Positions 1 through 52,544 of a stretch of 64,000 nucleotides of DNA are shown here, piece after piece. Made by a program: the position numbers and the translations under genes. This stretch comes from Vermamoeba vermiformis (lineage: Eukaryota). The DNA lies in NCBI GenBank assembly GCA_045837725.1, contig JBEWZL010000266.1, forward strand, positions 434,001 to 498,000, written 5' to 3'. Below the pieces are notes generated by a model that had not been told where the DNA came from, made no database searches, and worked only from the letters and a program-made list of their open reading frames with translations. Numbering within the stretch: the stretch's first letter is position 1; every line of letters begins with the position of its first letter.

Positions 1-57
1 AACACAAATTATCCTGCATCTTGTCTCCTGTCTGACACGTAAATATTGCTACTTCAG

Positions 58-423
58 GCATCGACCAAATGGAGCGAGGAGACTCCGAAATTGTAGGCCA
101 CTGTTTATTTGTTGCTAAAAAGGTAACTACAGCCTTGATGGAATCTCGATCGTGTTTCGCCTTTGATCTATTTCCTCCTGCGTGCTGAAAGCGCTTCAAC
201 GCACAATTTTTAATAACCATCGATTAAGAATATCAATACGCTATTTGTAGTACTTATGCGGCAGTTTCTAACTGGACTTTTTGCGCAGGTGGCAGCAGAT
301 CTTGGCTTCGTCGAGACTGGTTATCGAATTGTAACGAATATTGGACGTGATGGGCAACAGAGCGTTCGATGGCTGCACTTCCATTTAATTGGCGGTCGTC
401 GAATGAAATGGCCGCCTGGTTAA
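58..423 (+). CDS. HINT1: Histidine-triad nucleotide-binding (HINT) protein, last two exons (5' end lies before the window)
   Basis: Exons 58-122 ([21 protein letters not shown]) and 289-423 ([44 protein letters not shown]) join through a phase-0 GT..AG intron. The GYR..N....GQ.V..LH.H.IGGR.M.WPPG C-terminus is the HINT signature. Confidence 0.9.
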
Positions 424-640
424 ACCAAATCCGTGGATCCACGCATTTCACGTTTAGTCTTCCTTGTTAATAAATATCACTTGAACAAACATTAGTTGTG
501 TACATAAACGGGCCCCACATAGTGTCCCGTTATTTCTTTGTTTTTTCTGACAGCCAAAACGTTTTAACTTTATCCAAATCGCCGCCTTAGCTCATTGCAC
601 TTTCTCCCACGCCACAGTCCCATATATTGCGACTAGCATT

Positions 641-3600
641 ATGGACGAAAGATCGCAGGATGACATTAAGCGAGAGCTAGAGAAGCTCCAAGATTTGTTC
701 AATTCAAATCTGATCTTAAAAGAAGAGTTTGACCAAAGAAGCACTGAATTATTGTCGACAAAAAGTGTAAGATATTTATAGTTATTATTAACGATACAAT
801 CCATTCTCGGCTTGGTGTAATTTTAAATTTCCTGGTAAAATTGGCGCGGGTGTTAAAAATTATTAAAACGCTTCTATCGCATTTTAGGATGTGCACTTTT
901 AATATTACTATTATTAATAATATTTTTTAATCGCTTTTTAGGTGCAAGATCCAAAGCCGGTTTTAGCAACCACCAGCCCCAGCCCGGCAAGTAAAACTAA
1001 GAAAAAGCTGCCTAAGGATCCCACTTGCAATGAGCCTGTATGCTAGCATAATGTTTGGTTTTTTGACAAGTACTTACCGTTGCGTGGCAGGCGGAAGTGC
1101 ACGAGGATTTCAGCTGCATGTTGAATCAATCGAACATTGGCTTGAACAACAACAAGTTCTTTGTGATTCAAGTGCTCACTGATGGCTCCAAATACTTTGA
1201 ATTCGCTCGGTGGGGTCGTGTCGGGGAAAGAGGCCAATCAAAATTGACACCGTTCACCGACCGTACTGCTGCTGAACAAGCTTTCAAAAGAAGGTACGTG
1301 CTGGAACTTTCACATAATTCATTATTTTTTAACTATCAGTGGCTAATATATTCGTATCAGATTCCGTGACAAAACTGGAAACGAATGGGACCAACGAAAG
1401 AACTTTTCTGCAAAACCTGGCAAATACACGCTGCTTGAAATCGATTACGAGGATAATTCGGTAACTAATGATAATAATTCGTTCCTATTATTTTCTTACT
1501 GACGCCCTTAAAAGTCTCAATTACCTGCTCCGATGAAAGTCGAGCCTTCATCAAATCTACCTGAAGTTGTTAGAGTCGCTCTGACAGAATTGAGTGATGT
1601 CAAATTATACGAGAAAAGTAAGGTTTAGCTCAACTTGACGGTTATTGATATTTTGTTGCAGTTTTGGAGTCACACGAGATCGACGTGCGTAAGATGCCTC
1701 CCTCTAGACTTAGCAAGAATGCCATCGAAACTGCCCGCGAAATTTTGATGCAACTAAATTCTGCAGATACCGATCAGCAACGCAGGGAACTTTGCAACAA
1801 ATATTACACAGTTATTCCGCACAATTTCGGATTCCAGCTCCCACCTCTTATCACCAACGTGTATCCTCACGTAGTTAAACTCGCTGTACTTGAAGATGTT
1901 ATGGAAGCTATGCGTGTGTTGGAAAGCGCACGTGACGAACCAAATATGAATCGCCTTGACGCCCTGCTAAAGAAACTTGACTGCGACTTGGTGCCCGAAG
2001 AAATTATCGTCAGACCTTTAATAGACCAACTTGCAGGCCCTTCTGGTGTCAACCCAACCGGCAAGGTTGTTTCAGCCTTTGCTGTCAAAAAACACGACAA
2101 CACCGCCTTTGCTAAACACGACGGCAAATATAATCGACAATTGCTGTGGCTTGCGTGCTCTAGCATGGCAGCAGTACTGCTCACTTTGCATTCTGGTGCC
2201 AGAGAATACGACCGAAAGTACGGCAAAAGAGGTAAGACCATCATTTTATTTTTACATTAATTTTTGCTTCGTTCTGACTTTCTTTTTAGTTTATTTGACG
2301 CCCAACATTGAAAACGCATTCAATTATGCAAACATCCCAACTGAAGCGACTTACATGGTGCTCGCTGAAGCAGTACTCGGTAGAGAGTACGAAATCCCGG
2401 AAAATCAGCTCTCGATTCCAACGGGACATCACGACTCAGCGGTTTCAAGAGGTCCCGAGCAGTTTGAGACCGAATACATGTAAGTAATTTACTTACAATT
2501 CATCAATGCACTTGGACTAACGCTGCTTACACAAGGTTCTTTGACGGACAGAAAGTTCAAATACCTATTATTAGCGCAGTGTACAAGCGCGGCAGATTCA
2601 CTGAACACCTCATTGCGGATCCGAGCCAAGTTCGCGTTAGATACTTGGTTAAAGTTCAGCCAATTCAGAGCCCACCTGAACCTAGTTCCAATCCCGTGCC
2701 TGTATTTACGCCGAGTAGCTTTTCAGTCATGCCAAGTTTTGGTGGCCCTCAAGTTCAAACTTTAACACCGCCTACCCTTGCTGCTCAACCAGCTTCTGCT
2801 GCACGTAAACGTGTCGATCCTCAATGCAATCTGAACGGTGTAAGTATAATAATATCAAGGTGTTGTTTGTTATCAACTATGGCATTAACAAACGGTAATC
2901 TAGGTGGAAGTTTACGGAGATTTCAATTGCATGTTGTCTCTTGTGGGTGCGTTTGCCACGGCTATGAACAGCAAATTCTTCGTCATTCAGCTGCTGACTG
3001 ACGGGCGCGAATACTACGAGTTCACTCGCTGGGGTCGTATTGGCCAGTCAGGGATGTTTAAGATAGTTACGTTCGATAATGCAGCTGCAGCCGAGCAATC
3101 GTTCAAACGGAGGTTCGTTACGTGTAATATATCGAATTGTCATTTAGCTAACTTATTCGATATCAGATTCTCCGACAAAACTGGAAACGAATGGGACCAA
3201 CGAAAGCACTTCTCTGCAAAACCTGGCAAATACACGATGCTTGATATGGAATACCAGGATGATGATGTGGTAGACCTCGATAATTTGCTCACAGAAACCA
3301 AAAATGTCGCCAAGACCACAAAGACGACTGCTCCGTCTGTTTTGCAGCCACTTCAACTCCAACCAACAGTGCCTTCAGTACATAAATACAAGGTCGATTC
3401 TGAGTGCAAACTTGATGGGGTAAGTAGACAGCTACCGATCCAATGAATTTGAGCTAAAGTACTGATGCTGTGCCACAGGTTCAAGTCCACGAAGATTACG
3501 CTTGCGTCCTTAATCAAACAAACATCGCTGCAAACAGCAATCGGTTCTATATTCTACAAATGCTCACCAACCAAGCCAACAAGTTTTGGGTGTTCAGTCG

Positions 3601-6600
3601 TTGGGGCCGCGTTGGAGAAACCGGACAAAATGCCCTTCGTCCATGCGATACTTTGAACGCTGCTGTTGCGGACTTCAAGAAAAAGTAAGAAATATTGACA
3701 ATATGCTATAAGTGTGCTAATCTTATGCCGTTAATAGGTTCAAGGAAAAGACTGGCAACGATTGGGCAAGCAGAAAGAGTTTCGCGGCAGTCCCGGAAAA
3801 ATACGTGTTGCTCGAGATGGATTTTGACACGCCTGCGCCATTAGTTCAACCACAACAAAGTGCTTTTACTTTCGGAGGTCCAACGACGACGACGTCAGGT
3901 GCCCAATCCCCTGGTGGATTTTTCTTCCCACCTCAGATGAACAATAACACTGGTACATTCGGAAGCCCCGCACTCCCCACTACTTCATTGCCACTAAATC
4001 TAAACATCGGCCAACCCAATCCCACCCCTTCGTTTACATTTGGCGCAAGCTCTGCACTCCCTGCTACTTCCAGTCTGTCAACTCCAACGACAGTCGAGCC
4101 ACAATATACGTTTCCACCATCATTTGGTAGCGGAACTCCGGGTCCTTACGGCCTCCCATCTGCACCTCCACAATCGTCTTCTGCAAATAATCCAATTGAG
4201 TTCAAGTGCTTGATTATCGGTGACGGAGGTGTTGGCAAAACCACTTTTGTCACAAGACACGTAAGTGATGTAGTGCGATAGAATTTATTATACTCAGCTC
4301 TAACTTTATTATTATTACAGCAAACCGGAGAATTTACTCGTCAGTATAATCGTACGTTTGATTTTTAAAAATAGCGACCAAACTAACTTTTCAAACGTAG
4401 CCACTGTTGGAATGCGAACGACCAAAATTCCTTGGTTTACTACTCGTGGATCAATAACTTTCAATATGGTCGAAGTCGGAGGGCAACTCCAACACCGGCC
4501 AGAAAACATCGACGATATTTTGTAAGCCTCGTTTTACTATTGTTTTTTCACTATTTTGCTAACTTGGCGTTTTCAGTGTTGGAGCACAATGTGCTATTAT
4601 CATGTTCGACGTTACAAGCAGAGTAACTTACAAAAATGTTCCGCTGCATTACCGCGACGTCGTGCGAGTTTGTATGGATATTCCTGTCGTGCTTGTTGGC
4701 AACAAGGTAAAACTTTGCCTTTTTAGGAAACCAGTACTAACGATGCTTATTTCTAAGGTCGATGTGGCCGATAGAAAAGTGAAGCCTCAAACGATCACTT
4801 TCCATCGCAAAAAGGTAAGAAACTTATGTAAAATTGCCTTATTTGGACTCAACTAATGATGTTTCCGAAATAGAACTTGCAATATTATGACATTTCAGCG
4901 AAGAGCAATTATAATTACGAAAAGCCGTTCCTGTACTTAATTCGCAAATTGCTCCAGTAAGAAAATATCACAATATTTCTTGCAATTCATTGACACTAAT
5001 ACTGCGAATCTTAGTGACCCCAACGTGTACTTCGAGTCCGCACCCGTTTTATTGCCTCCCGAAATTTTACTGAACAACACTATTGCAAGTCCACTTGAAG
5101 CAGTTGACGACGATTTCGATAATGATCCGGAACTGCCTGCCGAACAGCCCGCGAATCCTCCTCCGAAGGCTTTGAGTGACATTAAAAAGGTAAATTATAT
5201 GCATCTTATTAGCAAAGAGCTAATTGCAATGTTTTTTTGCAGTTTAAAGTGTTGCTTGTTGGAGATCCGGTCGGAAAAACTTCGTTTGTGAAAAAACTGC
5301 TAGCACAACACTTCGACACCAAATACTCACGTAAGTCATCTTATATAATTTTATACGTTTTAACCTTATTTATTAAGCTACGCTTGGTGTTGAAGTTTAT
5401 TCCTTTAAAATTGAAACGAAAAAAGGCGAGAAACTCGAGTTCAATATTTGGGACACTGCTGGACAAGAGAAGTTTGGTGCATTAAGAGATGGCTATTAGT
5501 ACGTATTATTTATAATATAACGATGATCTGATATTAATACCTTGCAGTATCATGGGCAACGCAGCACTGATTTTTTATTCTGTCGAGTCACAAATAACGG
5601 CTAAAAATACCAAAAATTGGCACAGAGACGTTACCCGGGTTTGGTAAGAAAACACTCAATAATAACATTAATTATTAATATTAATATTAATTTTTACATT
5701 AGTGTCGATGTACCTATCGTAATTTGCGGAACACAAGCAGATTTGCCTGAAGAAGAACATCACGTGACTATTGAAAACTTCCCGGTTCCTTCTTTTGTAA
5801 GCCTCAAACAACATTTTTTTTCACGCACAAGGCAAGATTTTTAATTTTCTTTTGCCGAAACAGAAAGAAAAGTATCCGATGATGGAAGTATCGGCCAAGT
5901 CAAACTTGAACATTTACGAGCCATTCATTGAACTAGCGAGAAAGTTGCTCAATGATCCAGAACTCGAATTCAAAGAGAAATTTCCCTTACCAGTCCTTAA
6001 ATTCGCTGCTAAACCAACCGAACAAGGAGACAAGAAGACTACAGAAGATTCTCCGAGTAGCATCAGCCAACAATTCAACCAATTGAATTTGGGTGACGCC
6101 CCGTCTGGCCCAACCGGATTCACTTCGTTCCCAGCGGCCAACAACAGCCCGTTTTCCCCTAGCGCGGTTTCAAGTACGTTTGGTCAAGTGCCACTGATGC
6201 TAGGAAACCAACCAGCGACGTTTGGTTCGCATGTTCGATTCACCTCTTCTTCACAACTGCCAACTTCTTCTTCGTCTCCCTCGCAGTTCACCACACCTAG
6301 TGGCTTCAAACTGACCGTGTCTCCTTTCCCTCGACCAGTCGGTGGATTTACGCCGAACTCGTCTCCTTCGCAGTTCCCTCAACCAGTCAGTGGATTCACA
6401 CTGCCGAACTCGTCTCCTTCGCAGTTCCCTCAACCAGGCTTTACAATGCCTACATCTCCTGCGGCTCCTACATTCAGCTCACCTACAACAAGCGGCTTCA
6501 CAATGCCTAGCAATCCTGTTCCATTGCCGCCTACTCCAGGACCCACAGTGTCTCTTCAATCAGACGCCGCGAAAAATAGCAAGCTCACAAGTGCGTTAGA

Positions 6601-9262
6601 TTTCCTTGAAGTGGTCCAGAAAACGTTTGTCAATCGCATGTCAGTTTACCAGGCCTTTTTGGACATTATGAAGGACTTCAAATCACAACTGTAAGTTCCG
6701 AAATTCATTGATGGTATCTCATTTTAAGTTCAACGACTAACTCTGCTTTAGGATTGATACTCCAGCGGTTATCGCAAGAGTTAAAGAGCTGTTCAAAGGT
6801 CATCCCAAGTTAATTCTTGGATTCAATACGTTCTTGCCTCCTGGTTACACCATCGACAGTTCTGAACTTGAAACCGAAGAACAAGAACTAGAACAACAGA
6901 AAAGTGACGATGAAATTGACAAAGTTTTAACTGACCAACCAAAAACAGCAACAAATGTAGATTTTAATAGGGCTCACACTTATGTGGTGAAGATCAAAAA
7001 CCGCTTCGCGAACCAGCCTGAAGTCTACAAACAGTTTTTGGATATTTTGCACAACTGTCACAATCAAAAGCATCCTATTCCTGAAGTGCTCGAGCAAGTT
7101 TCTGTGCTGTTCAAAGGCCACGAAGATCTGATCGAGGGATTCAAAATATTTATACCAGAAGCCCCCACGCCTAACAAAACTGCCGAATTGGCTGTAAGTA
7201 CTGAATAATTTTATAATTCTGCTCACTTTTTCGATTTAAACGTTGCTTAGAAACTTATCGAATTGAATGTTTAATCGAATTAACTGATTTATTAAGGTAC
7301 CGCAACAGCCCGAGACTGGCGAGTGGCACCCCGTTGACAAATCGCCGAAGTTCCGCGGTGGCCAAGAACTGCGCCAATATCAAATCGATGGGCTCAACTG
7401 GCTGTTGTTCTTATGGACCCATCGTCATGGCTGTATTCTCGCAGATGAAATGGGTCTTGGCAAGACAATTCAAGCCATAGCTTTCTTGAATCACCTCGTC
7501 ACCGTCAAGTCTACTCATGGCCCGTTCTTAGTGGTAGTGCCACTTGCCACACTCTCCAACTGGCAGCGTGAGATCGAGAGTTGGACGGAAATGAGTCTTG
7601 TGTTCTATCACGGTGACAAGAATACTCGTGCCAACATCCGCAAGTCCGAGTTTTTCCGCCCAGGCACAAAAACACCAAAATTCAATGTGCTGTTGACTTC
7701 CTACGAGTTTTTGGTAACTGACAACAATTATCTCGCTGAGATTGATTGGCGCGTGGTGGTCATTGACGAGGCTCACCGAATCAAAAATTCACAGTCAAAA
7801 TTGGTGGAATCTTTGCGCCAGTACAAGTTCGATCACCGCGTGCTGCTCACTGGCACGCCCATTCAGAACAACGTTGAAGAGCTGTGGGCGCTGTTGAGCT
7901 TTATTGAACCTGCAAGGTTTGTGTCCAAAGAAGAGTTCACGGCTGAGTTTGCAGATCTGCAAGAACCTGAACAAGTCCAAAAGTTGCATAAACTCATGTC
8001 CCCTCACATATTACGCAGGTTCGTATAACAACTTTATATTAGAACGCCCGTTCAATTGGCACTAACTATGTTAATGCAGATTAAAATCGGAAGTTTTGCA
8101 AGAGAAATCCATTTCTGCGAATGTTAGCCTGAACCAACCACAGCCCTCATTGTTCGGTCAACAGCCAAACCCACCTACATTTACATTCGGCAACACAGCT
8201 CAACAACAGCCCTCATTGTTCGGTCAACAACCAAACCCGCCAACATTTACTTTCGGCAATACAACTCCTACGTTGTTCGGCACTGCAAATCAAACTTTGC
8301 CACAACCAAATCCCGTTGCTTTTACGTTTGGCAATACCAGCCAACAGCCCCCGTTGTTCGGTCAGCCAAGCCCTTCGGGATTTTCTTTTGGTGCTCCGAT
8401 GCAACAAGTCAACGCCGCACCTGGACCTGTGTTCGGTCAACTGCAACCTGTTAATACGACACCAGTAAGTTCTCTCTAGTTGTAAGTCTTCAATGTAGTT
8501 TTAACCTTTTTACGTCAATTCGCAGACGTTCAAAGTGATCGTTGTCGGTGAAGGAGGCGTTGGCAAGACATGTTTTGTTGACGGGCTGCTCGGAAAGCAA
8601 TTTGAGACTAGATACATCGGTTAGTAGTCCATTGCCTTTAGTTAGTTATCAGCACTAATAGTGGTATAACAGCTACTCTTGGTGTCAGTGTCAATAGCGT
8701 GAGCAGATCTTGCACGAACGGTAAACAAATTGTGTTCAATTTATGGGACACGGCCGGTCAAGAAAAGTTCGGAGGCCTGCGAGACGGATATTAGTATGTA
8801 GATTTTATTGTCATATTAGGAAATATTTATTAACGACAACTCTTAGTATCGGAGCAGATGCCGCGATTATCTGTTATAGTGTTGATTCTGAAGTTACAGC
8901 CAAACAAGTCAGCAAATGGCACCATGACGTTCGCCGAGTATGGTAAGTGCACTAAAATCAGATTTCCTTATTTGGACATGATTACTAAATATGGCTATTT
9001 TAGCGAGAAAGTTCCCGTTGTGCTAGTAGCGCTTAAAAAAGATAATGATCACACTTTCGCTGCCGAGAGTTTACCTTCGCTCGAACCTATTAAGGTAAGG
9101 CAATTACCATATTTGGTAATCACCCATTTAACCATGCCTTTGCAGGAGGAGGCCGTCGGTCACTTCGAAGTCAGTGTTAAAATGAATGAAGACATTAATG
9201 CGCCGTTATTGGCCCTTGCAAAGGCATTGTTGAACGATCCGAATCTGGCTTTTGACAACTAA
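641..9262 (+). CDS. Giant multidomain protein (~31 exons, ~2,250 aa): SHOCT - WGR - PARP_reg - degenerate PARP catalytic - WGR - WGR - FG-rich - Ran-like 1 - Ran-like 2 - PAH - PAH - SNF2_N (CHD-like) - FG repeats - Ran-like 3
   Basis: From ATG 641 ([20 protein letters not shown]) I traced about 30 GT..AG introns with compatible phases and no in-frame stop until TAA 9260-9262. Motifs: three xRWGR[VI]G WGR domains (~1091-1450, 2904-3255, 3479-3825); PARP_reg [14 protein letters not shown]-like [10 protein letters not shown]; Ran-type [24 protein letters not shown][AG][19 protein letters not shown]; Sin3 [38 protein letters not shown]2 [23 protein letters not shown]. Confidence 0.85.
6322..6437 (+). 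repeat. Coding tandem repeat (FP[RQ]PV[GS]GFT(L)PNSSPSQ) in the linker between Ran-like 2 and PAH1
   Basis: Near-identical units containing ccgaactcgtctccttcgcagttccctcaaccag occur at ~6353 and ~6404. Confidence 0.85.
8141..8265 (+). repeat. Coding tandem duplication of a 22-aa FG unit ([19 protein letters not shown]...)
   Basis: cagccctcattgttcggtcaaca starts at 8141 and again at 8207 (66-nt period). Confidence 0.9.
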
Positions 9263-9516
9263 AGGCACCTTTGCCATTTTATTTTTGTTGAGTTAATAAA
9301 GCTAAACTTTTGTATTGGTAAATGACCCATCTAAAGTCATATGCAAGCTATAGTAGCGATCACTTTATCGGCCTGTTTTTCTGACACGTGGATCCGGCTG
9401 AGTCTGGTGGCCGCTGGCTGTGTTATTCTGTTCTTGTGTTATTTTTTTTTTTTATAAAATAAAAAAAATATAAGATATTTTTTCTCCTCGGCAATTATTG
9501 GCAGGTACCAGCGATA

Positions 9517-10381
9517 TTATATTAACTTGCACTTTAGCTTGCCGTTCTTGACCTTCTTCTTTTTCGCATCCGCAGAATTGTGACCGGGCAATGTCTTGCG
9601 CACTTCACGTACCAAAGAGAAGAATGCCTCTTCAATGTTCTATCAAAACAAATAAATTAGATTCGATTCGCTTAAGCAAAATGTAATAAAAACGCGTACA
9701 ATACGGCGTAACGCTGAGGTTTCGAAGAAAGGCGCCTTGTATCGTCGAGCAAGCTCCTCTCCCTCAGCAGTGGTCACTTGTCTCTCGTCTTCGAGATCGG
9801 ATTTATTGCCGACAAGCACAGCAGGCACCCAATCTCGTTCCTTGGCTCTCAAAATTTGGTCGTAGAAAGAATTAACTTCATCGAAGGAACTACGGCTGGT
9901 AATAGCATAGCAGCACAAGAAACCTTGGCCTGTACGCATCTAGACGACAATCGTAAGTATCGACATAAGTGGATAATAGTATTTCTTACGTATTGGTCAA
10001 GCATAACAGAGAAGTCCTCTGGAAGAAAAAAAGGTTCAATATTTAAATCCCGAATTAATTATTATTGAAATAGTAAAATCAGCGAGCAAAAATTACCGTG
10101 TCGCGCAGTGTCTGTAATCTCCAATAAGCAAATTTCATCGTCAACGTGGAATTGTTTGCGATATCTAGAATTTCAAAGTTTAGTTACCCCTTTATAAAGT
10201 CCACATTTAGGCGTCTAGGCGTCAAAGATATTACTATAAAATTAGGTTTAATTATGTGCACTTACGAGTCTTCAATGGTAGGATCGTAAGAACTGATAAA
10301 GTGGTTGGAAATGAGCTGGATCGTGCAAGCGGATTTACCAACACCTTCAGCACCAAGGACAACGATCTTGTATTCGGTCAT
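9517..10381 (-). CDS. ras: Ras-family small GTPase, 5 exons, with non-canonical G12E/G60R/Q61H and CAAX box CKLI
   Basis: Spliced product: [78 protein letters not shown]...GNKSD...[23 protein letters not shown]...[15 protein letters not shown]. The effector loop YDPTIEDSY is intact. Confidence 0.95.
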
Positions 10382-10553
10382 TATTATTATTGATGCTACT
10401 ATACCTTGTGCCATAATAATGGTTAAAAATGGTTATGTTGTTCGGTAAGAAATAAACGCGCTCTGATTGGCCCAAATAAAAATAAATCAAAGTGTCATGT
10501 GTCACCCTCTAACGTTACGTAAACAAAAACATTTATATTACATACTTTGGCTA

Positions 10554-42122: not shown

Positions 42123-44495
42123 TTAAAAATGCATGAAAATCGCACCACCTAATACAGAAACGCTTAAGGAAAGAACGCTTGTCACACTAGCTACACCGTT
42201 ATTCATCGAGCTTCTTGGACTCGTCAAAGGACTGCTTGGGTCTTGTCCAGCTCCATCGGTGATCGCAGGCACTGCAAGTTGATTTCCGCAATTGCAGGCA
42301 TCACTTGGTCTTGGAACATTAGCACCTGTGTCGACAGGAGTTCCATCGAACTTTGCAATGTAATATCCTCCTCCACCAGTGCCAGCTACGATAATTCCTT
42401 CATTTCCTGGTTTCGCGCGCAATGTGTTAATCGTTTTCATGCCTAATCCGTCGGCGGCGAGCGTCCACGTTGGAGCATCACTTAAGAGATTCTGTGTGGT
42501 CCAAGCACCTGTGGCATCGATCACATCATCAAAAGGGTCTTTGCGAGTACCAATAACTGCTTGATTAGGGTTCGCTGGGTTGATAGCAATGTCGCTGACG
42601 TATTCGATGTTGGGAGATCCGCCCCAGCCAACAACTCTCTTCCACGTCCAAGAAGATGAGGCACTATTGTAAGTAGCTCTCCACACTCCATCTTGTCCTT
42701 GGAAATATCCACGAGCAACGGCATAAAGTCGATCAGGCGTGGTCGGATCCATTTCTAGACGAGTGTCACCGTATTGCCAGTTCTTGGGACTGTTGGTCAT
42801 CAGACTGAAGTCGACGCCATTAGAAGTGTAGTAGATGCCTCTGCGGCCAGATAAGAAGAATTCTGTTGGATTGTTTGACCCACGTGAGACGAACCATAGC
42901 AGGCCAGATCCGGTGTTCGCGTCAACGGTATCGTTCAAGGGAATTCGTTGCCAAGAGCTGCCACCATTACTAGTAGTATATAGTCGTCCACTAGCAGTCA
43001 TCCAGACTTTGTTAGCATCAGTTGGGTGCACTAAAATGCCTTGAGGGTACATCCATGCGTTGTACTTGTCCAGATCCGACGGGTAACCTGCTTCACTCCA
43101 AGTCAATCCACCATCAATAGACTTCGCAACGCTGTTGCCATAAGTCCATCCAGGTTGCCCACGAGTCGCATACGCCGTTGTGCCATCAGTGGTAAATGTC
43201 ATGTCCGTGTACCCGCCAAAAGGAGGTAAACCGCTCTTCGCTGCACTTTTCCAGGTCTGGAAATTATCACTGCTGATCCATAATCCATCGTCCATAGCGA
43301 AAGTGAACGATCGGTCGGTATTCACAGGGTTCCACTTGAAGTTGATAGCGACATAGCCAGAATATCCACGTCCTCGCCAGAAATTTGACGATTGGTTAAA
43401 TGGTCGATAAGAACTGCTATCAATAATGGTTTTGCATCCATCTTCAGAGCGGAATATTGTCACCCATGTAGAGATCAGAACACGACTGTCATTCCTTGGG
43501 TCAATGGTGACTTGTCCTGCTTCAAAAGTGAAGTCGAATGCATTTGCAGGTCGGTAGATTTCGGTCCAATTGCCGCCGTTCACTGAACGGAACAGCCTTT
43601 GTTTGTCTTTGTTCATCGCGTAGACCGTGCTCGGATTGCTAGGTGAAACTGCTACATGACGCCAGTTGCCAGATAAAGGAAGCCCGTTGTTGAATGGAGC
43701 CCAACTGTCTCCGCCATTGCTCGTTTTATAGACCCCAGATCCACCAACGGTGACGTACGCAATGTTCGGATCCGTTGAATGAGCTGCAATGGACTCGATG
43801 AACATTGACGGTAAACCAGTGCTGCTAGACTGCCAAGTCCTACCACCATCTTTTGAACGATAGATGCCCTTGTTCAGCACCGAAGCGAGAATAGTCTGAG
43901 AAGTAGATCCGGCCAAGAATGTTGCCGATGCAATGTTGCCTGTCGCGTTGGCGGGTTGAGCAAGCATTGTCCAATTTGCACCACCATTCAGTGATTCGTA
44001 GACGAGACCTTGGTTGCGCAGAGAACTTTCACTTGATCTTCTGCGAGTCCCAAAGAACGACAAAAGTCGGTTAACATTGGTCGGATCAAACAACACAACC
44101 TGCGTAAACGCAGTGAAAGTGGCAAAATCACCATTAGAAGGCATGCCATTACGCATAGAGATCCAATTCTTGCCACCATCTGTTGAACGATAAGGGCCAT
44201 TACCGGTGCCAACCCATACTGTGTTCGGATCTGTCGGATGCCACGTGAACTCTTCAATCATGTAGTTCTGCAAGCCTATCATATTCTGGTCCCAAGTAGC
44301 ACCTCCGTCTAATGATCTTGCAATCCCGAGAATATCTCCGCCGGCTAAAACAACGTTCGAAGCGTGAGGACTGATGGACGCTGCAGTGACGGCACCACCG
44401 ACTCCTGGTTCATATAAAGGACGCCACTGAAGCTGAGCCACAACGATAGAAGCTTGAAATAGGCAAAGCACGAGAGCTGTCAGCAGTACACGCAT
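42123..44495 (-). CDS. Intronless secreted or anchored BNR/Asp-box beta-propeller protein (GH74 xyloglucanase/sortilin-like), 790 aa
   Basis: Single ORF with a signal peptide, many S.DGG.[TNS]W Asp-boxes, GGDILG near the N-terminus (GH74-like position), AMDD, and a C-terminal hydrophobic tail. Confidence 0.88.
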   Translation of the reverse strand: MRVLLTALVLCLFQASIVVAQLQWRPLYEPGVGGAVTAASISPHASNVVLAGGDILGIARSLDGGATWDQNMIGLQNYMIEEFTWHPTDPNTVWVGTGNGPYRSTDGGKNWISMRNGMPSNGDFATFTAFTQVVLFDPTNVNRLLSFFGTRRRSSESSLRNQGLVYESLNGGANWTMLAQPANATGNIASATFLAGSTSQTILASVLNKGIYRSKDGGRTWQSSSTGLPSMFIESIAAHSTDPNIAYVTVGGSGVYKTSNGGDSWAPFNNGLPLSGNWRHVAVSPSNPSTVYAMNKDKQRLFRSVNGGNWTEIYRPANAFDFTFEAGQVTIDPRNDSRVLISTWVTIFRSEDGCKTIIDSSSYRPFNQSSNFWRGRGYSGYVAINFKWNPVNTDRSFTFAMDDGLWISSDNFQTWKSAAKSGLPPFGGYTDMTFTTDGTTAYATRGQPGWTYGNSVAKSIDGGLTWSEAGYPSDLDKYNAWMYPQGILVHPTDANKVWMTASGRLYTTSNGGSSWQRIPLNDTVDANTGSGLLWFVSRGSNNPTEFFLSGRRGIYYTSNGVDFSLMTNSPKNWQYGDTRLEMDPTTPDRLYAVARGYFQGQDGVWRATYNSASSSWTWKRVVGWGGSPNIEYVSDIAINPANPNQAVIGTRKDPFDDVIDATGAWTTQNLLSDAPTWTLAADGLGMKTINTLRAKPGNEGIIVAGTGGGGYYIAKFDGTPVDTGANVPRPSDACNCGNQLAVPAITDGAGQDPSSPLTSPRSSMNNGVASVTSVLSLSVSVLGGAIFMHF

Positions 44496-44698
44496 TGCGA
44501 ATAGTCTGGTGGAAATTTTTGTTATACTCGGTTAACATTTATAGGGTTATTACCTGCGTCGTGTTCTTGCGATGAAATGTGAATGTAAGATTAATGTTAA
44601 AACAAAAACATCGAAATTAACAAACAAGACACGAATGACAGGGGTTTAGCTTACCGATAAAAATACACAGAAAGGCCAACTATTGAGTGATAATTGCT

Positions 44699-45212: not shown

Positions 45213-46478
45213 TTAGTTTACCAAGTGCTCTAGCTCCGCGTTCTCAGACTTCTTTTTGTTGTGATACTTATAAGCAACAACTAACGATACGATTACTAGC
45301 AGGATAATAGCTGAGATGATAATCCATTCCGTTGTGTAGTTACGCGTATTAATTGGTGCTGCAACTGGCTCAGCTGCTGTTGGTGTTTGATACTCCGGAG
45401 TACCTTCAAATTTTGTCAATTTGTGGTCAATTAAAGTGAGTATCAATAACTTACTGTAGGTAATGTTAAGGATGACATCTCGCCACTCATATGGAGTACC
45501 GTATTGAGGAGTAATTTCAAAAAAATAAGTGGTATAACCGCCAGGAACGTCTAAATAATGTTATAACGTGTTGGTTTGTTACGCGGAGTTATTTGATGCT
45601 TACCAATTGAAGTTTTGACTTCCGTAGAGTTGCTTAATTGAACGATTTTGACTTCCGTAGAGTTGGTTAATTGAACGAATTCTGAGTTCTTAACCCCGCT
45701 AATAATAACCATACAATTGAAAGGCTGATAATTGAATTGGAAGAAGAATCTAAAGTCAGTCCCCTGATTGCTGTGTATTGGTGTAGTGTAGGCATATGTT
45801 TTAAAAGGAAGCGCAACTAGTTCAGGAGCACGAAATGGGATCGGATCTCCGCTGCGAAACCCAGACATGCCAACTGGTGACACGCTTTAACCTTGAAATA
45901 AAATAATGAAAAATCCTTACTATAGCCAAGGTAGCCAGTGACTGCTGAATTAGCAGTAGAAGTCGCCAACATTCGAATGTTCAGGATGGAGCCATCGGAG
46001 AAGTCGCGATCAGGTTGATACGGACCTTTAATTAATTAATTAAAATTAATCATTATGCCAAAAATAAAGTCCGATTAATATTATGAATGAGAAGTCGGAA
46101 TTAATTCTTCGTGAAAATTTGTAAATCCACCTACTTGCCGCTATGATTATTCCAGCTCCTCTAGCATACGGGACTTCAACGGGTTGTTGATATTTCTGCA
46201 ATTCCAAGATCGAATCAGCCACAGTTTTGATTTTCATACCAACTTACGCCGTTAACGCTAATGTAAAACTCTGCCTTTTGTATTTGGATGTGCGCAAAGT
46301 CACTTTCAGAGATTTCTACGTAGAAATACGGAATCGATCTTGGAGGTATTGGCAAGCTGAGAAAAGGATCACTGCGGATTGGATTTGCCCAATTGAGTGC
46401 TACTGTCCTATTTACAAAGGCACCAAAAGAAGGTGCAAAAAATAAGGCAACTAGTATTAATGGACAACGAAGAGGCAT
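45213..46478 (-). CDS. Type I membrane protein of unknown function, multi-exon
   Basis: Signal peptide MPLRCPLILVALFFAPSFG; beta-rich ectodomain exons; TM WIIISAIILLVIVSLVVAY; tail KKKSENAELEHLVN*. Confidence 0.75.
45613..45678. repeat. 33-bp tandem duplication in an intron
   Basis: ttttgacttccgtagagttg[c/g]ttaattgaacga occurs twice in tandem. Confidence 0.92.
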
Positions 46479-46635
46479 TGTTCGTGGGCGTGTAAAAACG
46501 GAAGAAATAAGCTTAAACGGGCTTAAATGTTGACACGGGACCAAAATTGAGTCTCGATCTGGGTCCCGTATCAATATTAGCCTAAATACTATCCTTGCTA
46601 GAAGATCAGACGAATAATAATTCCTTTCTTTACTT

Positions 46636-49600
46636 CTAACTGAATAAGGGTTGATTCTCATTTTGTTGTTTTGTCAAGTGCAAAAACACTTGTTTGAGCG
46701 AGGTCTGCGAAATCGCCCAGTTCGATATTGACAATTCATGTTTGTTCTCTTCAACGAGGGCGAATAGAGCTGCTAAGTTATTGCCAACAGCACCAACATC
46801 GTACATTCTGAAGCCATCCATTGCCTCGAGCAACTTGCAGCCAGCAAAGTGTGACGTGACGAAGTTGTGCACTTCGACCTGTTTGTCTTGCGAGTAGGTC
46901 AATAGTAATCGATAGCCAGAGCCAAATTTGTGCTTGAGGTGTTGAGGACTGCCTATGCATCGAATCTGGCCTTTAACCATAATGGCTGAAGGAACATAAG
47001 TTAGTCCGGATCCTACATTTAACACAAACTCAATTAGAGAAAAACTTACCTATCCTGTCGCAAATAGCTTCAGCCTCATCCATACTATGAGTAGTTAACA
47101 ATACACAAGTATTGTTATTCTTGACGTAGCGGATCTCGTGCCACAATTGTCGGCGTGCCAACGGATCCATGCCGGAGCTCGGCTCATCCAACAAAATGAT
47201 TTTGCTGCCCCAAGCCATAGCAATAGCCAAACTCAATTTTCTTTTGTTGCCTCCGCTCAAAGTCTTGGTCAGCCTAACAAAAGAGGTGAGTCTACGAGGA
47301 CGTCGTCGAACATGGCAAGATCCGTACTTATTCTCATATTTGCTCAAACCTGTTCTGTGAAGCAGCGTGGTCACGTGATGCGAAACTTGTGCGGGTGTCA
47401 ATCCGGCTCTGAGATATGAGTTAATACATGAATAAATCCTCCGTTATTGTAACACGTACCTCAATTTGACGTAAAGTTCGAGTTGTTCACGGACGGTCAA
47501 AAAGCCCATCAATGCCTTGTTACTTTGCAAGCAACAGTTGAGTGCAATTTGTCGGTAGAGCTTCGACACTGAGATGTTGTGCGTGGACATGTTGTGCAAT
47601 AAAATGTCACCGTGGCTCGTTGACATTTGTGCGGTCAACATTGCGATGGTCGTTGTTTTGCCGGCACCGTTGGGTCCCAACAATCCAAAACAAAGATTGT
47701 TCTGCATGCCCATTGTGACGCCCTTGACAGCTGTCACGTCCTTGTTGTATACTTTGTAAATATTCAGTGCTTTAACCACGTCTTTAGGGTTATGTTGGTC
47801 ATTCCAAACACGATCTTTTTCTTGTCGCACGTCATCGTCCATATCTATGTCGTCACGTGGTGGCAACGAATCATCGTATAATGACTGCTTTCGGTGGTAA
47901 TTATGCTATAAATATGTCATTAGTACCTCTTTGTAAACATTAGAGAAATTGGTCCACGTACCAAACTGTCAACGATGACTAAGATAGCGAAGAAAAGCAA
48001 AGACTGGCCAAGGAAGAATAACAACGACCAACAGATGCCCAAGTTAGGATCCAAAAATGCAAAGTAGTTGCCTTGATTATAGACGCGTGCTTGATCTTTC
48101 AAAGTAGCCAGATGAACGAAGGCTGTGGCGACAGCTGAGGACGGCGTAAGATTGGCCAAGAGGTTGAAAGGTGCCGGCGCGAATAGCAAGCCAGCAGGCA
48201 ATACAGTCACCATATTAATCAAGCCCAACCATTCTGGCAAAAAGAATTAGAATGTTGTTGGATCCGACAAGTTCGGTACTCAAAATTAACTTACTTTGAA
48301 GAGTCTCGACCTTGTTAAACATATAAGTGCATATATATGCCCAAGAAGTATAAGATAATGTGAACCCGAGTGCTACTAGTGCAACGCTTGGGAGCAGATC
48401 GACCGTCAAACCACCCACTACACAGGCATTAGAATCAGAGTTACAGTACGCTAAAAATAGGTACTTACTTTGTACTATAAATCCAACAACACACGCCATG
48501 AATACTGAGATGAAAGTCAAGGTGCCATCAACAATCAAGTTGCTGATCCAGTAGATGAACGGAGGCGTTCCGGTAACATTGATCAACAAGCGAGTTTGGT
48601 GCAATCTTTCGGACAAAATCTAACACATAATATTATTAATCCGATTATCAAGGAAAGAAGTTTCTAAAATAGTTTTTCGATTGATTGGATCCGTACCTTT
48701 TTAGCCAATAAAACTCCGAGAGCGCACAATTCAATCGCAATCAAATATGCATTAGTGCTTTCTCTTATGATCACGAAAATGTTTCCAGAGGCTTGTGGGA
48801 ATGGGTTCGAATTGACCTTCAAGAAAGTCCTGGCAACCTCGGGACTCGCGTTAAGCGCCAAAATAGCGCTGTGGAACATGTTGATGAGTGCAGGCAACGA
48901 ACCATGACGAAGCTGATTATAGTAGAAGTTCATGTAATAGTAGTTCGATGTCGCGTTGATTCCATTGAAAGAAAGCGCGCCAAAACTAAATCGCGGATCT
49001 ATCGTGGCGCTGCTCGACGAGTTGAGTTGGTCGGTCAAATAGTTTTCAATATCATGGTACGTTTGGAATTCCAAGAATTTGATATCTTCAGGGTTCGAAG
49101 ACAAACTGTGCGTAGCATTAAGGAAAGTCCTAATATCAGGTCTGGTGCCATAGTAAAGTTGCGAAAATGGGAATGTGACCGGCAAGAACTCGACGAATGA
49201 AAACGATTCAGGAACTGCATCAGTCTTAGAGTTGATTTGATTATTATTGAGGTTCTGTTGGGTCTGAAAAATATTCATATTAGCCGAGCTGATGGACTTC
49301 AATAATAGACTTACAGTGAATATGAGATTCATGAGCAAGAGCGTCAATGTGGGCAATAGCAAGAACACGAGCAACATCTTCCACGATCTCAATTGGAAGA
49401 TAACTCTGGCCTTAACCAACGCATTCATTTTAGTCACGAAAGACGAGGCTTTTGCGTCTAACAAAAGGCATTAGTAATTGCTCAACAGGTATTATTTTGA
49501 CATGAGAATGTTACCTTCAGCAGCGTCTAATGCAGCAGCAGTACCAGCCACGTGGTCCACTTCATCTTCATCGACATTAATGCTATGTTCTCCGCGTCTT

Positions 49601-52544
49601 TGGCTCGGCTTTGGCTCGTCAGTATGTTCAGTCTCGTCAGCGGTGATCTTCAAAAACACGTCTTCGAGCGATGTCATTGAAATGCCGTAACTTTCAATGC
49701 CCAAATTGTGCACTGGCTCCTTTGTCTCTTGTTCGAGCGCTTTTAATAGATTCAATAGCAACGATGATTCGCTGTTCGGGAGCAAGATAGTCATATCACC
49801 ATCGTTTTCTTGAGCCAATGAGGCCGTAGGGTACAACTCTAAGAAAAAAGTTTAGTATTCGTGACGAGATTTTAGTCGATAGTTGTACCTTTGATAAATT
49901 TAGTGAAGTTGCTCATAGAAAAGAACTCAGCCTTGGCAATGTTCAAGTAGTATCCGATACCAAACCTTTGTTTCAAGAACAAAGGAGTACCATAGCACTT
50001 CAATTTGCCGTTTGCAATAATCGCAATTCGATCACCGAGGACATCAGCTTCTTCCATGAAATGCGTGGTCAAGATGATAGTTTTTCCTTCCTTAAACTTT
50101 TTCAAAGAATCCCACAAATGAGCACGTGATGTGGGATCGAGACCAGACGTCGGTTCATCAAGGAACACCACTAAAAGATTCATTTTAGACGCTGCCACTC
50201 CGAAAAATTTGCTCACGTACCTCGAACTGGACCAATGGTGGCAATGGCAAGACTAAGCCTACGCTTCATACCACCGCTGTACTCTTTGACTATAGTATCT
50301 TTCTTTTCGACCAAATCAACGTTCTCAAGGGCACGCATCACCACGTGATCAAGAACGTCATCGTCAACGCCACGAAGTTTAGCAAAGATTCTCAAATGTT
50401 GGTCGCCAGTAAGTTCGTCAAACAGCAAGTCTTTTTGTGGGCAATAACCCATAACCTTGCGCAACGTGTCAATGTTCTCGTTAATGTCGAGGCCATTGAT
50501 AAGAACTTCACCAGATGTCGCTGAAGTCATTCCTATATTTGGATTAGTCACTGTTGAAGTGGCAGTGACGCGTGTCACTTATTGACGTACCGGTTAAAAC
50601 TGAAATAGTCGTGCTTTTGCCCGCACCGTTGTGTCCCAAAAGAGCCATAATTTGATTGGTGCCAATATCCATGGACAAATTGTTAACGGCAACAACTTTC
50701 TCGTCTTGTTTTCCGGGATAGATTTTGTTCAATTTGCGTATCTGAATGCCAACTGGCTGAGAAGAGTTCAGTTGTTCGATGCCCTCACGAAGCTCGTAAT
50801 CGTTGTCGTTCTCGTTCAACAGAAGAGTTTCTTCTTCGGCTAGTTGTTTTGGCGTAGCTCTCCAGTAGCGGGGCAAAAAACAAAAATAGAATGGCTTTCT
50901 AATGCCTTGATCTTGAGGCAAAACGTTGCTCAAGTACCTGCGAAAAAAGTGTTAGATCCACGAGACGGTACAGAATAGCACATACCATACTAGGAAAGTA
51001 TAGATTATGGCGTCTATGAACAATACAGCAGCAAAGTTACCGGTGGTCATTTCTTCAGTCGAGAACCATACGGAAGCCCATGGACTATTGGTCGCTTCGT
51101 TCACGAACACCTTCATCAAAGCACAGTAGAAGCCCATTGGCGCAATAAAAGCCGTTCCTAATTGCACGCCAAAGCTTGCGTCGAGCAAGAAACTCGATAC
51201 CATGCCAAGGATTGTGAACCACAAGGTAGCGGTAATGGAGGCTAGTTGAGCTGAGGTCATGATAACTGGAACTAAAAACGAGAACATGATTGATGCCACA
51301 ACGTAACCAGCATTCAATAAAAAGAATGCAAAGAACGGTGTTTGAAGCTCTGAGCCCAAGACGAGATAAATCGAGCACGAGGACAGCACCAAAGGACCCA
51401 CGACAAATACTAACTGCATGCACAGCCAGCTGAGCCAATACGCTATTTCATTTAGGCCCGCTATCTTCATGAACTCTTTGAGCTTTGATTGCTTTTCCTT
51501 GACGATTTCTAGCGACAAAATGTCAGCAAAGTTACAGATCCACACGGGTAATTTTTGACCAACTTACGAACTAACGGGACCAAAAACGCGAGCATATATG
51601 AGTAGTTGATCATCTACATGGTAAAGTTAATATCTTTCCTGCTACATTACAGCAGAATTTTCTAATGAACTTTCGTTTTTCCCGAGTTCGGAACTTACTG
51701 AAGCGAAGCTGTTCGCCAATGATTTCGGAGGCTTATCTTGCTTCCAATACGGATATTTAGATACAGCATAATATGACGTCACATTATGCGAGGGCACTGT
51801 TGTCATGAGAATAGCGCGCTCGAGGAGAGATTGAAGGCCAACGAAACCAGAGGTCAAAAACATTTCATCCGAGTCTGTTGACCCGGGCAAATCATCCTCC
51901 GCGAGTCTAATAGTGTAATTAAAGCCCTCTTTTAGTTCTTCAAGCTCAATGCCTAAAAATAGCGAGAGTTAATGATCATAATCGAGAGATCTTGCCTCTT
52001 TGAACTTACCAGCCCAAACAGTATTATTAGCGTATCCTTGTAGCATCTCATCTTGCGATTGAACGTACTGGACTGGCAAGGGAGTCTTTTCATAACGGAC
52101 TAAGGACTTGAAGTTATTGATGATGGTGTCCGTTCTATTTGAACTTCCAAGAGGACGAGCAAGGACTGCTATAGTGCAAGAAGTCATATTATTTGCTGAT
52201 ATACAGTTGTCCAAGGCAGAAATAGTCGTAAAAATCTCTGAGGCGTAGGATTGGGTCGGGATCAGGGTACGCTTGACACTTCCGAGACCAGCTCGCATTG
52301 AAAAACCCGCTGCAGCTGCCTTTTATAAAACATGATTTTTAATAATTATTACGTAACAAAGTTGCCATTTTTATCAGTAAACAAGGTAAAATCAGCAGAT
52401 CCAATTACATAAATCAAAATAAATTTTAAATCTTACCATAAACAAAGGAAGTACGAGTATAATAATCATAGCACCCTTGTTGCGCTTTTGAAGCCACCAG
52501 TTCTTTTTGAACCCGATCTTTATTTGATCGGCGAGCTTTCCCAT
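46636..52544 (-). CDS. ABCA: Full-size ABCA transporter (TMD-NBD-TMD-NBD)
   Basis: [115 protein letters not shown]. Confidence 0.96.

Follow-up and report, generated by a model that had tools for sequence, protein, structure and literature searches.

The region at 641-9262 on the plus strand of a 64,000-nt stretch of the Vermamoeba vermiformis genome (contig JBEWZL010000266.1 of GenBank assembly GCA_045837725.1, positions 434,001 to 498,000 of the forward strand; hereafter the window) is very probably one selected multi-domain gene, in which three domains related to the GTPase Ran (Ran1, Ran2 and Ran3) are modules of a single spliced reading frame. Each of the three deviates from Ran at different guanine-nucleotide motifs (G1 to G5), the deviations recur almost unchanged in a syntenic orthologue, and substitution rates support purifying selection on all three modules. 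To our knowledge, Ran has been treated as a stand-alone switch, and it ranks among the most conserved eukaryotic proteins. An earlier sequence-only reading of this region had described three Ran-like domains, each broken at a different G motif, and had taken them for pseudo-GTPases that preserve different Ran binding surfaces. What it missed or understated is that the Ran domains appear to be modules of one 2257-residue protein that also contains phenylalanine-glycine (FG) linkers and degenerate nuclear-enzyme modules. The predicted protein combines a PARP2/3-like unit, three WGR domains, two Sin3-type PAH repeats, half of a CHD-type SNF2 ATPase and the three Ran domains, joined by low-charge, Phe-rich linkers, two of the three linkers having the appearance of nucleoporin-type FG repeats.

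The spliced domains were aligned segment by segment to canonical Rans, with numbering from the vertebrate-type Ran P0189, and the full canonical set of G1 (GxxxxGKT), G3 (DxxGQ with switch II), G4 (NKxD) and G5 (SAK) was incomplete in every one of the three. Translation of the coordinates placed the three domains and every listed motif change where the sequence-only reading had put them, and the segment alignment agreed that each domain deviates at different G motifs. Specifically, Ran1 has a P-loop GDGGVGKT (4219-4242), a G4 motif NKVD divided by an intron (NK at 4701-4706 and VD at 4758-4763), a G5 motif SAK (4895-4903) and an acidic DDDFDND (5106-5126); like Naegleria Ran, it has a C-terminal extension that closes with an acidic DDDF. 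Its G3/switch II segment (4469-4519, the replaced stretch running to 4521) is identical to Ran at 3 of 17 positions. The description of this G3 motif as broken holds for the replaced switch II and was overstated for the core, which reads ExxGQ and not DxxGQ, so that the Gly and Gln are retained and the stretch downstream is replaced; the switch I Thr is also retained. Ran2 has a P-loop one residue short (GDPVGKT, 5261-5281), DTAGQ at 5452-5466, TQAD without the Asn and Lys of G4 (5731-5742) and SAK at 5891-5899; it has neither the basic patch nor the acidic tail and ends in a short unrelated continuation. Ran3 has GEGGVGKT (8547-8570) and DTAGQ (8747-8761), LKKD at G4 with Lys and Asp kept (9032-9043) and SVK at G5 (9173-9181), has no basic patch and stops at the end of the G domain without a C-terminal extension.

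Across the segments, identity to Ran for Ran1, Ran2 and Ran3, respectively, was 7/8, 5/8 (with the one-residue gap) and 6/8 in the P-loop, 8/18, 10/18 and 10/18 in switch I, 3/17, 16/17 and 17/17 in G3 with switch II, and 14/18, 10/18 and 9/18 in helix alpha3, and the basic patch HRKK was matched at 4/4, 1/4 and 0/4 positions. According to the available part of PMC9885160, the basic patch of Ran comprises residues 139-142 and the acidic tail (DEDDDL) residues 210-216, and the tail packs onto the patch in the GDP form; the C-terminal tail is described as auto-inhibitory in the available part of PMC8607414. As judged from these alignments, the degeneration is complementary, with the nucleotide-base motifs, patch and tail in Ran1 and a near-perfect switch II in Ran2 and Ran3. 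Sequencing error as the cause of the motif changes was ruled out, since the same motifs are present in the orthologue described below and the short Ran2 P-loop is also read by a contig of a second dataset (X8), which confirms the exon start in front of it. Rescue of the motifs by other splice sites was ruled out as well, every deviant motif lying within an exon and the flanking introns being 47-67 nt long with conserved ends.

Kinship with Ran was examined exon by exon. The Pfam Ras profile matched single exons of 39-43 amino acids (aa) with E values of 1e-8 and 3e-8. Among solved structures, the Ran1 exon 4578-4706 gave 44 distinct matches, all Ran/Gsp1 (E ~4e-17); for the Ran2 exon 5380-5496, the top 44 among the best 60 of 73 matches were Ran/Gsp1 (E 1e-10 to 2e-8), with Rabs following from 1e-5; and 44 of the 46 weak matches to the Ran3 exon 8848-8940 (E ~0.007) were also Ran/Gsp1. 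Over the full aligned domain the copies share 45-53% identity with canonical Rans, against about 73% among canonical Rans of different kingdoms, and the Ran1 core shares 62-63% identity over 171 residues with the Rans of Naegleria and Willaertia. Among themselves, Ran2 and Ran3 are 47% identical and Ran1 is 33-35% identical to either. In a quick maximum-likelihood tree of 78 rows, all Ran-type and including 72 of 120 library matches kept by length (195-240 aa), Ran1 and its orthologue were placed beside the heterolobosean Rans of Naegleria and Willaertia on a long branch (Shimodaira-Hasegawa-like approximate likelihood ratio test support 80-89), and Ran2 and Ran3, both to the same side of a split supported at 97, were attached to the Ran set by very long branches, for which long-branch effects are possible; a tree of Ran rows does not by itself exclude other GTPase families. 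These likenesses support a descent of all three domains from Ran. Taken by themselves, the affinities of Ran1 hint weakly at a heterolobosean-like host. Three introns are common to the copies, after the YN/YS/YI codon (phase 1), inside DGY|Y (phase 2) and before NLQ/KEK/EEA (phase 0); a 121-nt exon is shared by all three, and Ran2 and Ran3 have one further intron in common. From the shared intron positions and the shared exon it follows that the copies stem from duplication of an intron-bearing Ran gene at the DNA level and not from retroposition.

When metagenome contigs were searched for the PARP exon, 74 pattern matches yielded a single locus, a 10,535-nt contig (L001) that is collinear with the whole gene from the same ATG to the same TAA, with 7672 of 8931 aligned columns identical. 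The locus is syntenic, both flanks matching at 83-86% and carrying the same flanking genes, and GT..AG is kept at 30 of 30 introns. Of the 25 exon indels between the two sequences, 23 are multiples of three, and those in the linkers are in frame. The deviant motifs are kept in L001, where the replaced switch II of Ran1 recurs letter for letter together with GD-PVGKT and TQAD of Ran2 and LKKD of Ran3; only two motifs differ, GKT of Ran1 reading GKS and SVK of Ran3 reading STK. This argues that the altered Ran motifs are themselves maintained. The ratio of nonsynonymous to synonymous substitution rates (dN/dS), estimated by the Nei-Gojobori method in the window's frame between window and L001, was 0.315 for the whole gene (dS 0.177; binomial test versus neutrality, P 6e-31), and the introns differed at 207 of 1443 sites, close to a dS of ~0.18. 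Values for single modules are given in Table 1. The pseudo-GTPase claim of the sequence-only reading is partly supported. The complementary retention, the conservation in L001 and the dN/dS of the Ran modules agree with what functional, pseudoGTPase-like binding modules would show; Ran1 may well still bind nucleotide.

The gene model, obtained by hand and by scripted splicing, comprises 31 exons and 2257 codons followed by TAA, with zero internal stops; all 30 introns (44-175 nt) are GT..AG, and an AATAAA lies 33 nt past the stop codon. Several exons run across module borders, namely 3738-4260 (end of WGR3, FG linker 1 and the Ran1 P-loop), 5864-6690 (end of Ran2, linker 2 and the start of the first PAH repeat) and 8080-8464 (end of the SNF2 piece and FG linker 3), so that the modules would not be separate genes unless internal promoters were used. 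Putative transcript data came from X8, a set of contigs from a differently labelled organism. Seven of these contigs, 95-99% identical to the window, fall on the gene and cover 10 of 30 bins. Three of them lack exactly the introns 2232-2289, 3685-3737 and 5190-5242, and removal of intron 3420-3478 is implied by a loose end. The contig across 5190-5242 begins near 5088, continues for 52 letters beyond the joint and so joins the Ran1 tail to Ran2; over 5243-5294 it is identical to the window and reads GDPVGKT. The 30 substitutions between X8 and the window divide into 17 synonymous and 13 nonsynonymous, and within the folded domains into 11 and 2. That several neighbouring genes, such as Ran paralogues and a PARP-like gene, were wrongly joined into one model could be argued from the transcript support for only 4 of 30 introns (three as joints, one by a loose end) and from the fact that no read or contig spans the whole gene. 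This explanation is nevertheless very improbable, as in both species the modules follow one another without an intervening stop codon, the module borders lie inside exons, the linker indels are in frame and the X8 contig passes from Ran1 into Ran2.

With regard to function, the motif inferences rest on the known roles of G1 to G5 in nucleotide handling. It is most likely that none of the Ran copies is a GTP/GDP switch and that they are instead pseudo- or atypical GTPases offering permanently "set" binding surfaces; that they act as non-switch binding modules is favoured with moderate confidence. With G1, G4 and G5 intact, Ran1 probably still holds guanine nucleotide, and without the Ran switch II it would be unable to signal its nucleotide state as Ran does. 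In Ran2, with one residue missing from the P-loop and neither Asn nor Lys in G4, nucleotide binding is probably absent; in Ran3, where G4 has Leu for Asn and G5 has Val (Thr in L001) for Ala, it is probably weak or absent. Ran2 and Ran3 would display a nearly unchanged Ran switch II without the auto-inhibitory C-terminal tail. The alternative is that one or more of the domains, with Ran1 and Ran3 the likeliest candidates, function as atypical GTPases, either cycling or remaining GTP-loaded, in which case the protein would be a regulated multi-GTPase machine instead of a pseudoenzyme scaffold; this is unlikely but draws on several retained features. In Ran1, G1, G4 and G5 are present, Thr is retained in switch I and Gly and Gln in G3, and its ExxGQ could support Mg and GTP chemistry, a point that counts against the non-switch interpretation; in the G3E GTPase family, Glu replaces Asp in the G3 motif. 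Ran3 retains G1 and G3 as well as two G4 residues, Lys and Asp. Changes at the Asn of NKxD and the Ala of SAK speed nucleotide exchange in Ras, where mutants at these equivalent positions are fast-exchanging yet active. Against this alternative stand the switch II of Ran1 (3/17) and its half-changed switch I (8/18), the one-residue P-loop deletion and the loss of Asn and Lys from G4 in Ran2, and the alteration of two of three guanine-contact motif residues in Ran3.

Outside the Ran domains, modules were assigned by Pfam scans of 20 exon pieces and by alignment to solved structures (Table 1). The protein begins with a short N-terminal helix, followed by WGR1, PARP_reg, the PARP-like catalytic domain, a P/S-rich linker, WGR2, WGR3, FG linker 1, Ran1 and Ran2; after Ran2 come the S/P/T/F-rich linker, the two PAH repeats, the SNF2 N-lobe, FG linker 3, Ran3 and the stop codon. 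In the PARP-like domain, LWLAC is encoded at 2144-2158, and in a solved-structure alignment NRQLLWLAC aligns with NRQLLWHGS of PARP1, placing Leu at the His of the H-Y-E triad; L001 reads LWLTC at the same site. The triad Glu appears to be retained in a weak alignment (E 0.87), and the middle exon of the catalytic domain gave no solved-structure match. The SNF2 piece is closest to CHD6-9-like proteins (45-52% identity) and contains GLGKT (7453-7467) and DEAH (7765-7776); the Helicase_C profile of Pfam matched none of the exons scanned, and the frame continues directly from the N-lobe into FG repeats. Each of the enzyme-derived modules is thus, on the evidence of its motifs, without something essential to the activity of its parent. 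Made almost wholly of disabled enzyme modules (PARP, SNF2 and three times Ran), the protein may be useful for studying the recruitment of pseudoenzymes.

Some of these modules show signs of recent change. The second exons of WGR1 (1355-1457) and WGR2 (3161-3263) share 89% DNA identity, compared with 60% for that of WGR3 (3732-3834), which indicates either a recent duplication inside the gene or gene conversion between the modules. FG linker 3 contains a 66-nt tandem duplication at 8135-8266 with copies 89% alike, one of which is missing in L001, so that the FG array apparently changes length between close relatives. The same linker matched the Pfam Nucleoporin_FG profile with an E value of 5e-7 and 30.9 bits, just below the cutoff of 32.2 bits. 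Over the whole protein there are 19 FG dipeptides against 7.6 expected from composition.

Table 1. Modules encoded by the gene at 641-9262 of the window, with dN/dS between the window and L001.
Feature	Position	Strand	Basis and remarks	dN/dS
WGR1 (two exons)	1091-1460	+	Pfam WGR, E 1.7e-17 on exon 1091-1291	
PARP regulatory and diverged PARP-like catalytic domain	1515-2839	+	Pfam PARP_reg, E 7e-15	
WGR2 and acidic/T-rich linker	2904-3419	+	Pfam WGR, E 2.5e-11	
WGR3	3479-3830	+	Pfam WGR, E 5.7e-20; intron 3685-3737 absent from an X8 contig	0.15
FG linker 1	3831-4197	+	4 FG in 127 residues, P/T/S-rich, 3 charged residues	0.81
Ran1	4198-5189	+	G1, G4, G5, basic patch and acidic tail kept; switch II replaced	0.22 (core; P 1e-4)
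Ran2	5243 to ~5975	+	Short P-loop, G4 lost; switch II and SAK kept	0.16 (P 1e-6)
Linker 2, S/P/T/F-rich	5976-6580	+	18 Phe, only 2 FG in 200 residues; short direct repeats	
Two Sin3-type PAH repeats	6581-7193	+	Pfam PAH, E 3.4e-30, two stretches	0.33
SNF2-type ATPase, N-lobe only	7297-8105	+	Pfam SNF2-rel_dom, E 1.6e-68, profile positions 1-219 of 290	0.31
FG linker 3	8106-8464	+	9 FG in 120 residues, Q/N/T/P spacers, 1 charged residue	0.095
Ran3	8526-9262	+	P-loop and switch II intact; G4 and G5 altered	0.30 (P 1e-3)

A further explanation is a chimeric gene of recent origin or a pseudogene in decay, in which fragments of Ran, PARP, Sin3 and CHD genes were joined by duplication or by a fragment-capturing mobile element, any transcription is noise and the locus serves no function of its own. 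Such an origin would agree with the truncated or motif-deficient state of every enzyme module, with the recent internal duplications in the WGR exons and FG linker 3, and with the frame breaks in L001 and the near-absence of RNA-seq reads described below. It is highly unlikely, given 2257 stop-free codons, 30 of 30 conserved splice-site pairs, 23 of 25 exon indels in frame, a dN/dS of 0.315 overall (P 6e-31) and of 0.16-0.30 in the Ran modules, the same flanking genes in both species and the same kind of module-linker-WGR layout in a fragment that is 50% identical (P0242, see below). As to mobile elements, no terminal inverted repeats of at least 24 nt were found within 1-10500, and capture by a transposon was rejected on this ground.

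FG repeats are known to bind karyopherins and NTF2, and the surfaces of Ran are contacted by transport receptors as well as by regulators of Ran. From this combination we infer that the Ran modules and FG repeats together would hold proteins of the Ran pathway or transport receptors in place, and that the protein would be a scaffold at the nuclear pore or linked to transport, in which WGR and PAH would add modules for binding chromatin or nucleic acid. A tentative proposal, more doubtful than the non-switch role of the modules, is that the protein has karyopherins or regulators of Ran as its partners, at the pore or close to it. A fuller and decidedly speculative version, to which we give still less credence, is an FG-repeat nucleoporin-like scaffold with built-in Ran mimics, Ran1 being tail-on, switch-less and "GDP-like" and Ran2 and Ran3 tail-less and "GTP-like", which would dock, sort or unload karyopherins, NTF2, RanBP1 and RCC1-type partners locally and independently of the soluble Ran gradient, with the WGR, PAH, PARP-like and half-SNF2 modules holding chromatin or nucleic acid. 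If the partners were transport receptors or Ran regulators, the gene would show how Ran-like signals can be hard-wired into a scaffold beside FG repeats. The three built-in copies would form a natural "separation-of-function" set, one part of which offers the tail, basic patch and alpha3 and the other switch II.

Several observations weigh against the picture of a selected, pore- or transport-linked Ran scaffold. No nucleoporin structural or pore-anchoring domain was found in the Pfam scans of the 20 exon pieces, linker 2 has only 2 FG, and FG linker 1 is near-neutral (dN/dS 0.81). The dN/dS of 0.16-0.30 in the Ran modules is far looser than expected for true Ran, and the comparison is between two species only, at a dS of ~0.18. 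L001 has two 1-nt frame breaks, near its positions 4554 and 7189, in short homopolymers and bracketing Ran1, Ran2 and the first PAH repeat; if real, they would truncate the protein of the relative before Ran1. The contig name gives L001 a coverage of ~3x, and dN/dS between the two breaks is 0.29, like elsewhere, so the breaks may be errors or very recent damage. X8 was only guessed to be RNA and has a depth of 2-4. None of the runs listed as containing the stretch is recorded as RNA, and three raw RNA-seq runs (X14-X16, ~13 million records each, with the species label of the best-matching DNA run) gave only 4, 1 and 3 reads across the 9.2-kb gene: either the gene is silent or expressed at a very low level in these runs, or the organism is absent from them. 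Nearly all of these reads fall in bin 4698-5004, mostly in the Ran1 exon 4874-4956, where they are 95-99% alike, have a common T>C at 4885 and mostly continue into unlike sequence; they probably come from another Ran transcript. Should they stem from the true Ran mRNA, the Ran1 exon 4874-4956 would be near-identical to it in DNA, possibly through gene conversion.

The gene at 641-9262 is flanked upstream by the end of a HIT-family-like gene (217-423, plus strand), a family name that we assume from its motif. Tail to tail with it downstream, at 9500-10100 on the minus strand (open frame 9643-9939), lies a Ras/Rap-like small GTPase gene with intact NKSD and ETSA, a region that is also found downstream in L001. 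Elsewhere in the window, the minus strand at 42123-44531 carries an intron-free frame of 802 residues with many Asp-box-like repeats (S/T-x-D/N-G-G-x-T/S-W) and a signal-like N-terminus, which, judged by its motif, may be a secreted BNR/sialidase-type repeat protein; a gene without introns is unusual in this intron-rich window. At 46200-51600, also on the minus strand, the open-frame list indicates a multi-exon ABC transporter gene of ABCA-like look with two nucleotide-binding folds. The segment 34000-36000 has a GC content of 0.495 and a GC skew of +0.37 on the plus strand and coincides with long C/T-rich, low-complexity open frames on the minus strand.

Searches for similar proteins were made with single exons, and none of the SNF2, Ran and PARP queries returned the same architecture. 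Among proteins of 421-2000 aa the SNF2 exon matched only CHD-like proteins, at no more than 52% identity, and no orthologue. Against 1.84 billion cluster representatives the PARP exon gave one match at E <=1e-30, P0241, an open-frame fragment identical to L001, and one 50%-identical fragment, P0242, the remainder being ordinary PARPs at ~30%. P0242 is a 223-residue open-frame fragment in which PARP_reg is followed by a G/S/P-rich linker and then by the start of a WGR exon; it may represent a more distant relative with a similar modular gene without the catalytic part. The C-terminal half of Ran3 (9005-9259, with one in-frame intron read through) returned one candidate among proteins of 46-149 aa and none at E <=0.01. 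In the main texts of the openly accessible full-text literature, neither Ran-derived domains in multidomain or FG-repeat proteins nor tandem Ran proteins were found.

When compared with known systems, the N-terminal third of the protein has the WGR, PARP_reg and catalytic-like order of PARP2 and PARP3, from which it differs by the Leu in place of the triad His and by the unrecognisable middle of the catalytic domain, and the SNF2 piece differs from CHD-type SNF2 ATPases in having no C-lobe. RanBP2/Nup358 contains Ran-binding domains, whereas the window protein contains copies of Ran, and no nucleoporin anchoring domain was detected in the latter. The two are alike in being large proteins that combine FG repeats with modules of the Ran system (PMC12246119, in the part available). 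A precedent for GTPase-fold modules with mutated G motifs serving as structural or binding parts of a larger protein is provided by p190RhoGAP, for which the available part of PMC5593906 describes pseudoGTPase domains within a multidomain protein; classes of pseudoGTPases are cited in the available part of PMC13393502. The p190RhoGAP domains are not Ran-derived and have no link to FG repeats, and the pseudoGTPase state of the window modules is deduced from motifs only.

With Ran/Gsp1 itself, Ran2 and Ran3 share the switch II, and Ran1 shares alpha3, NKVD, HRKK, SAK and the acidic C-terminal extension. The difference is that Ran is a stand-alone protein of ~216 residues and the window copies are modules of a 2257-residue frame, each without at least one canonical G motif and only Ran1 with the acidic extension. 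The statement in the sequence-only reading that Ran stands alone has exceptions: the top matches of the Ran query were two uncharacterised tandem di-Ran proteins of Saprolegnia parasitica, P0121 (385 aa) and P0122 (377 aa), named in databases only, and for P0122 the ESM Atlas returned only ordinary Ran/Ras clusters. Like the window gene, these proteins have more than one Ran-like domain per chain, here two, each degenerate at different motifs. Domain 1 has SKID at G4, and domain 2 has a replaced switch II (DFAGQGSHDDHYAD), SVK at G5 and an acidic tail, a complementary decay of the same kind as that of Ran1 versus Ran2 and Ran3. Unlike the window gene, they consist of the two domains only, without FG linkers or other modules, and the order is reversed, the domain without switch II being the last. 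The Saprolegnia di-Ran proteins appear to be the nearest analogues of the window protein, and in view of the parallel, Ran domains in tandem with complementary degeneration may have had more than one origin.

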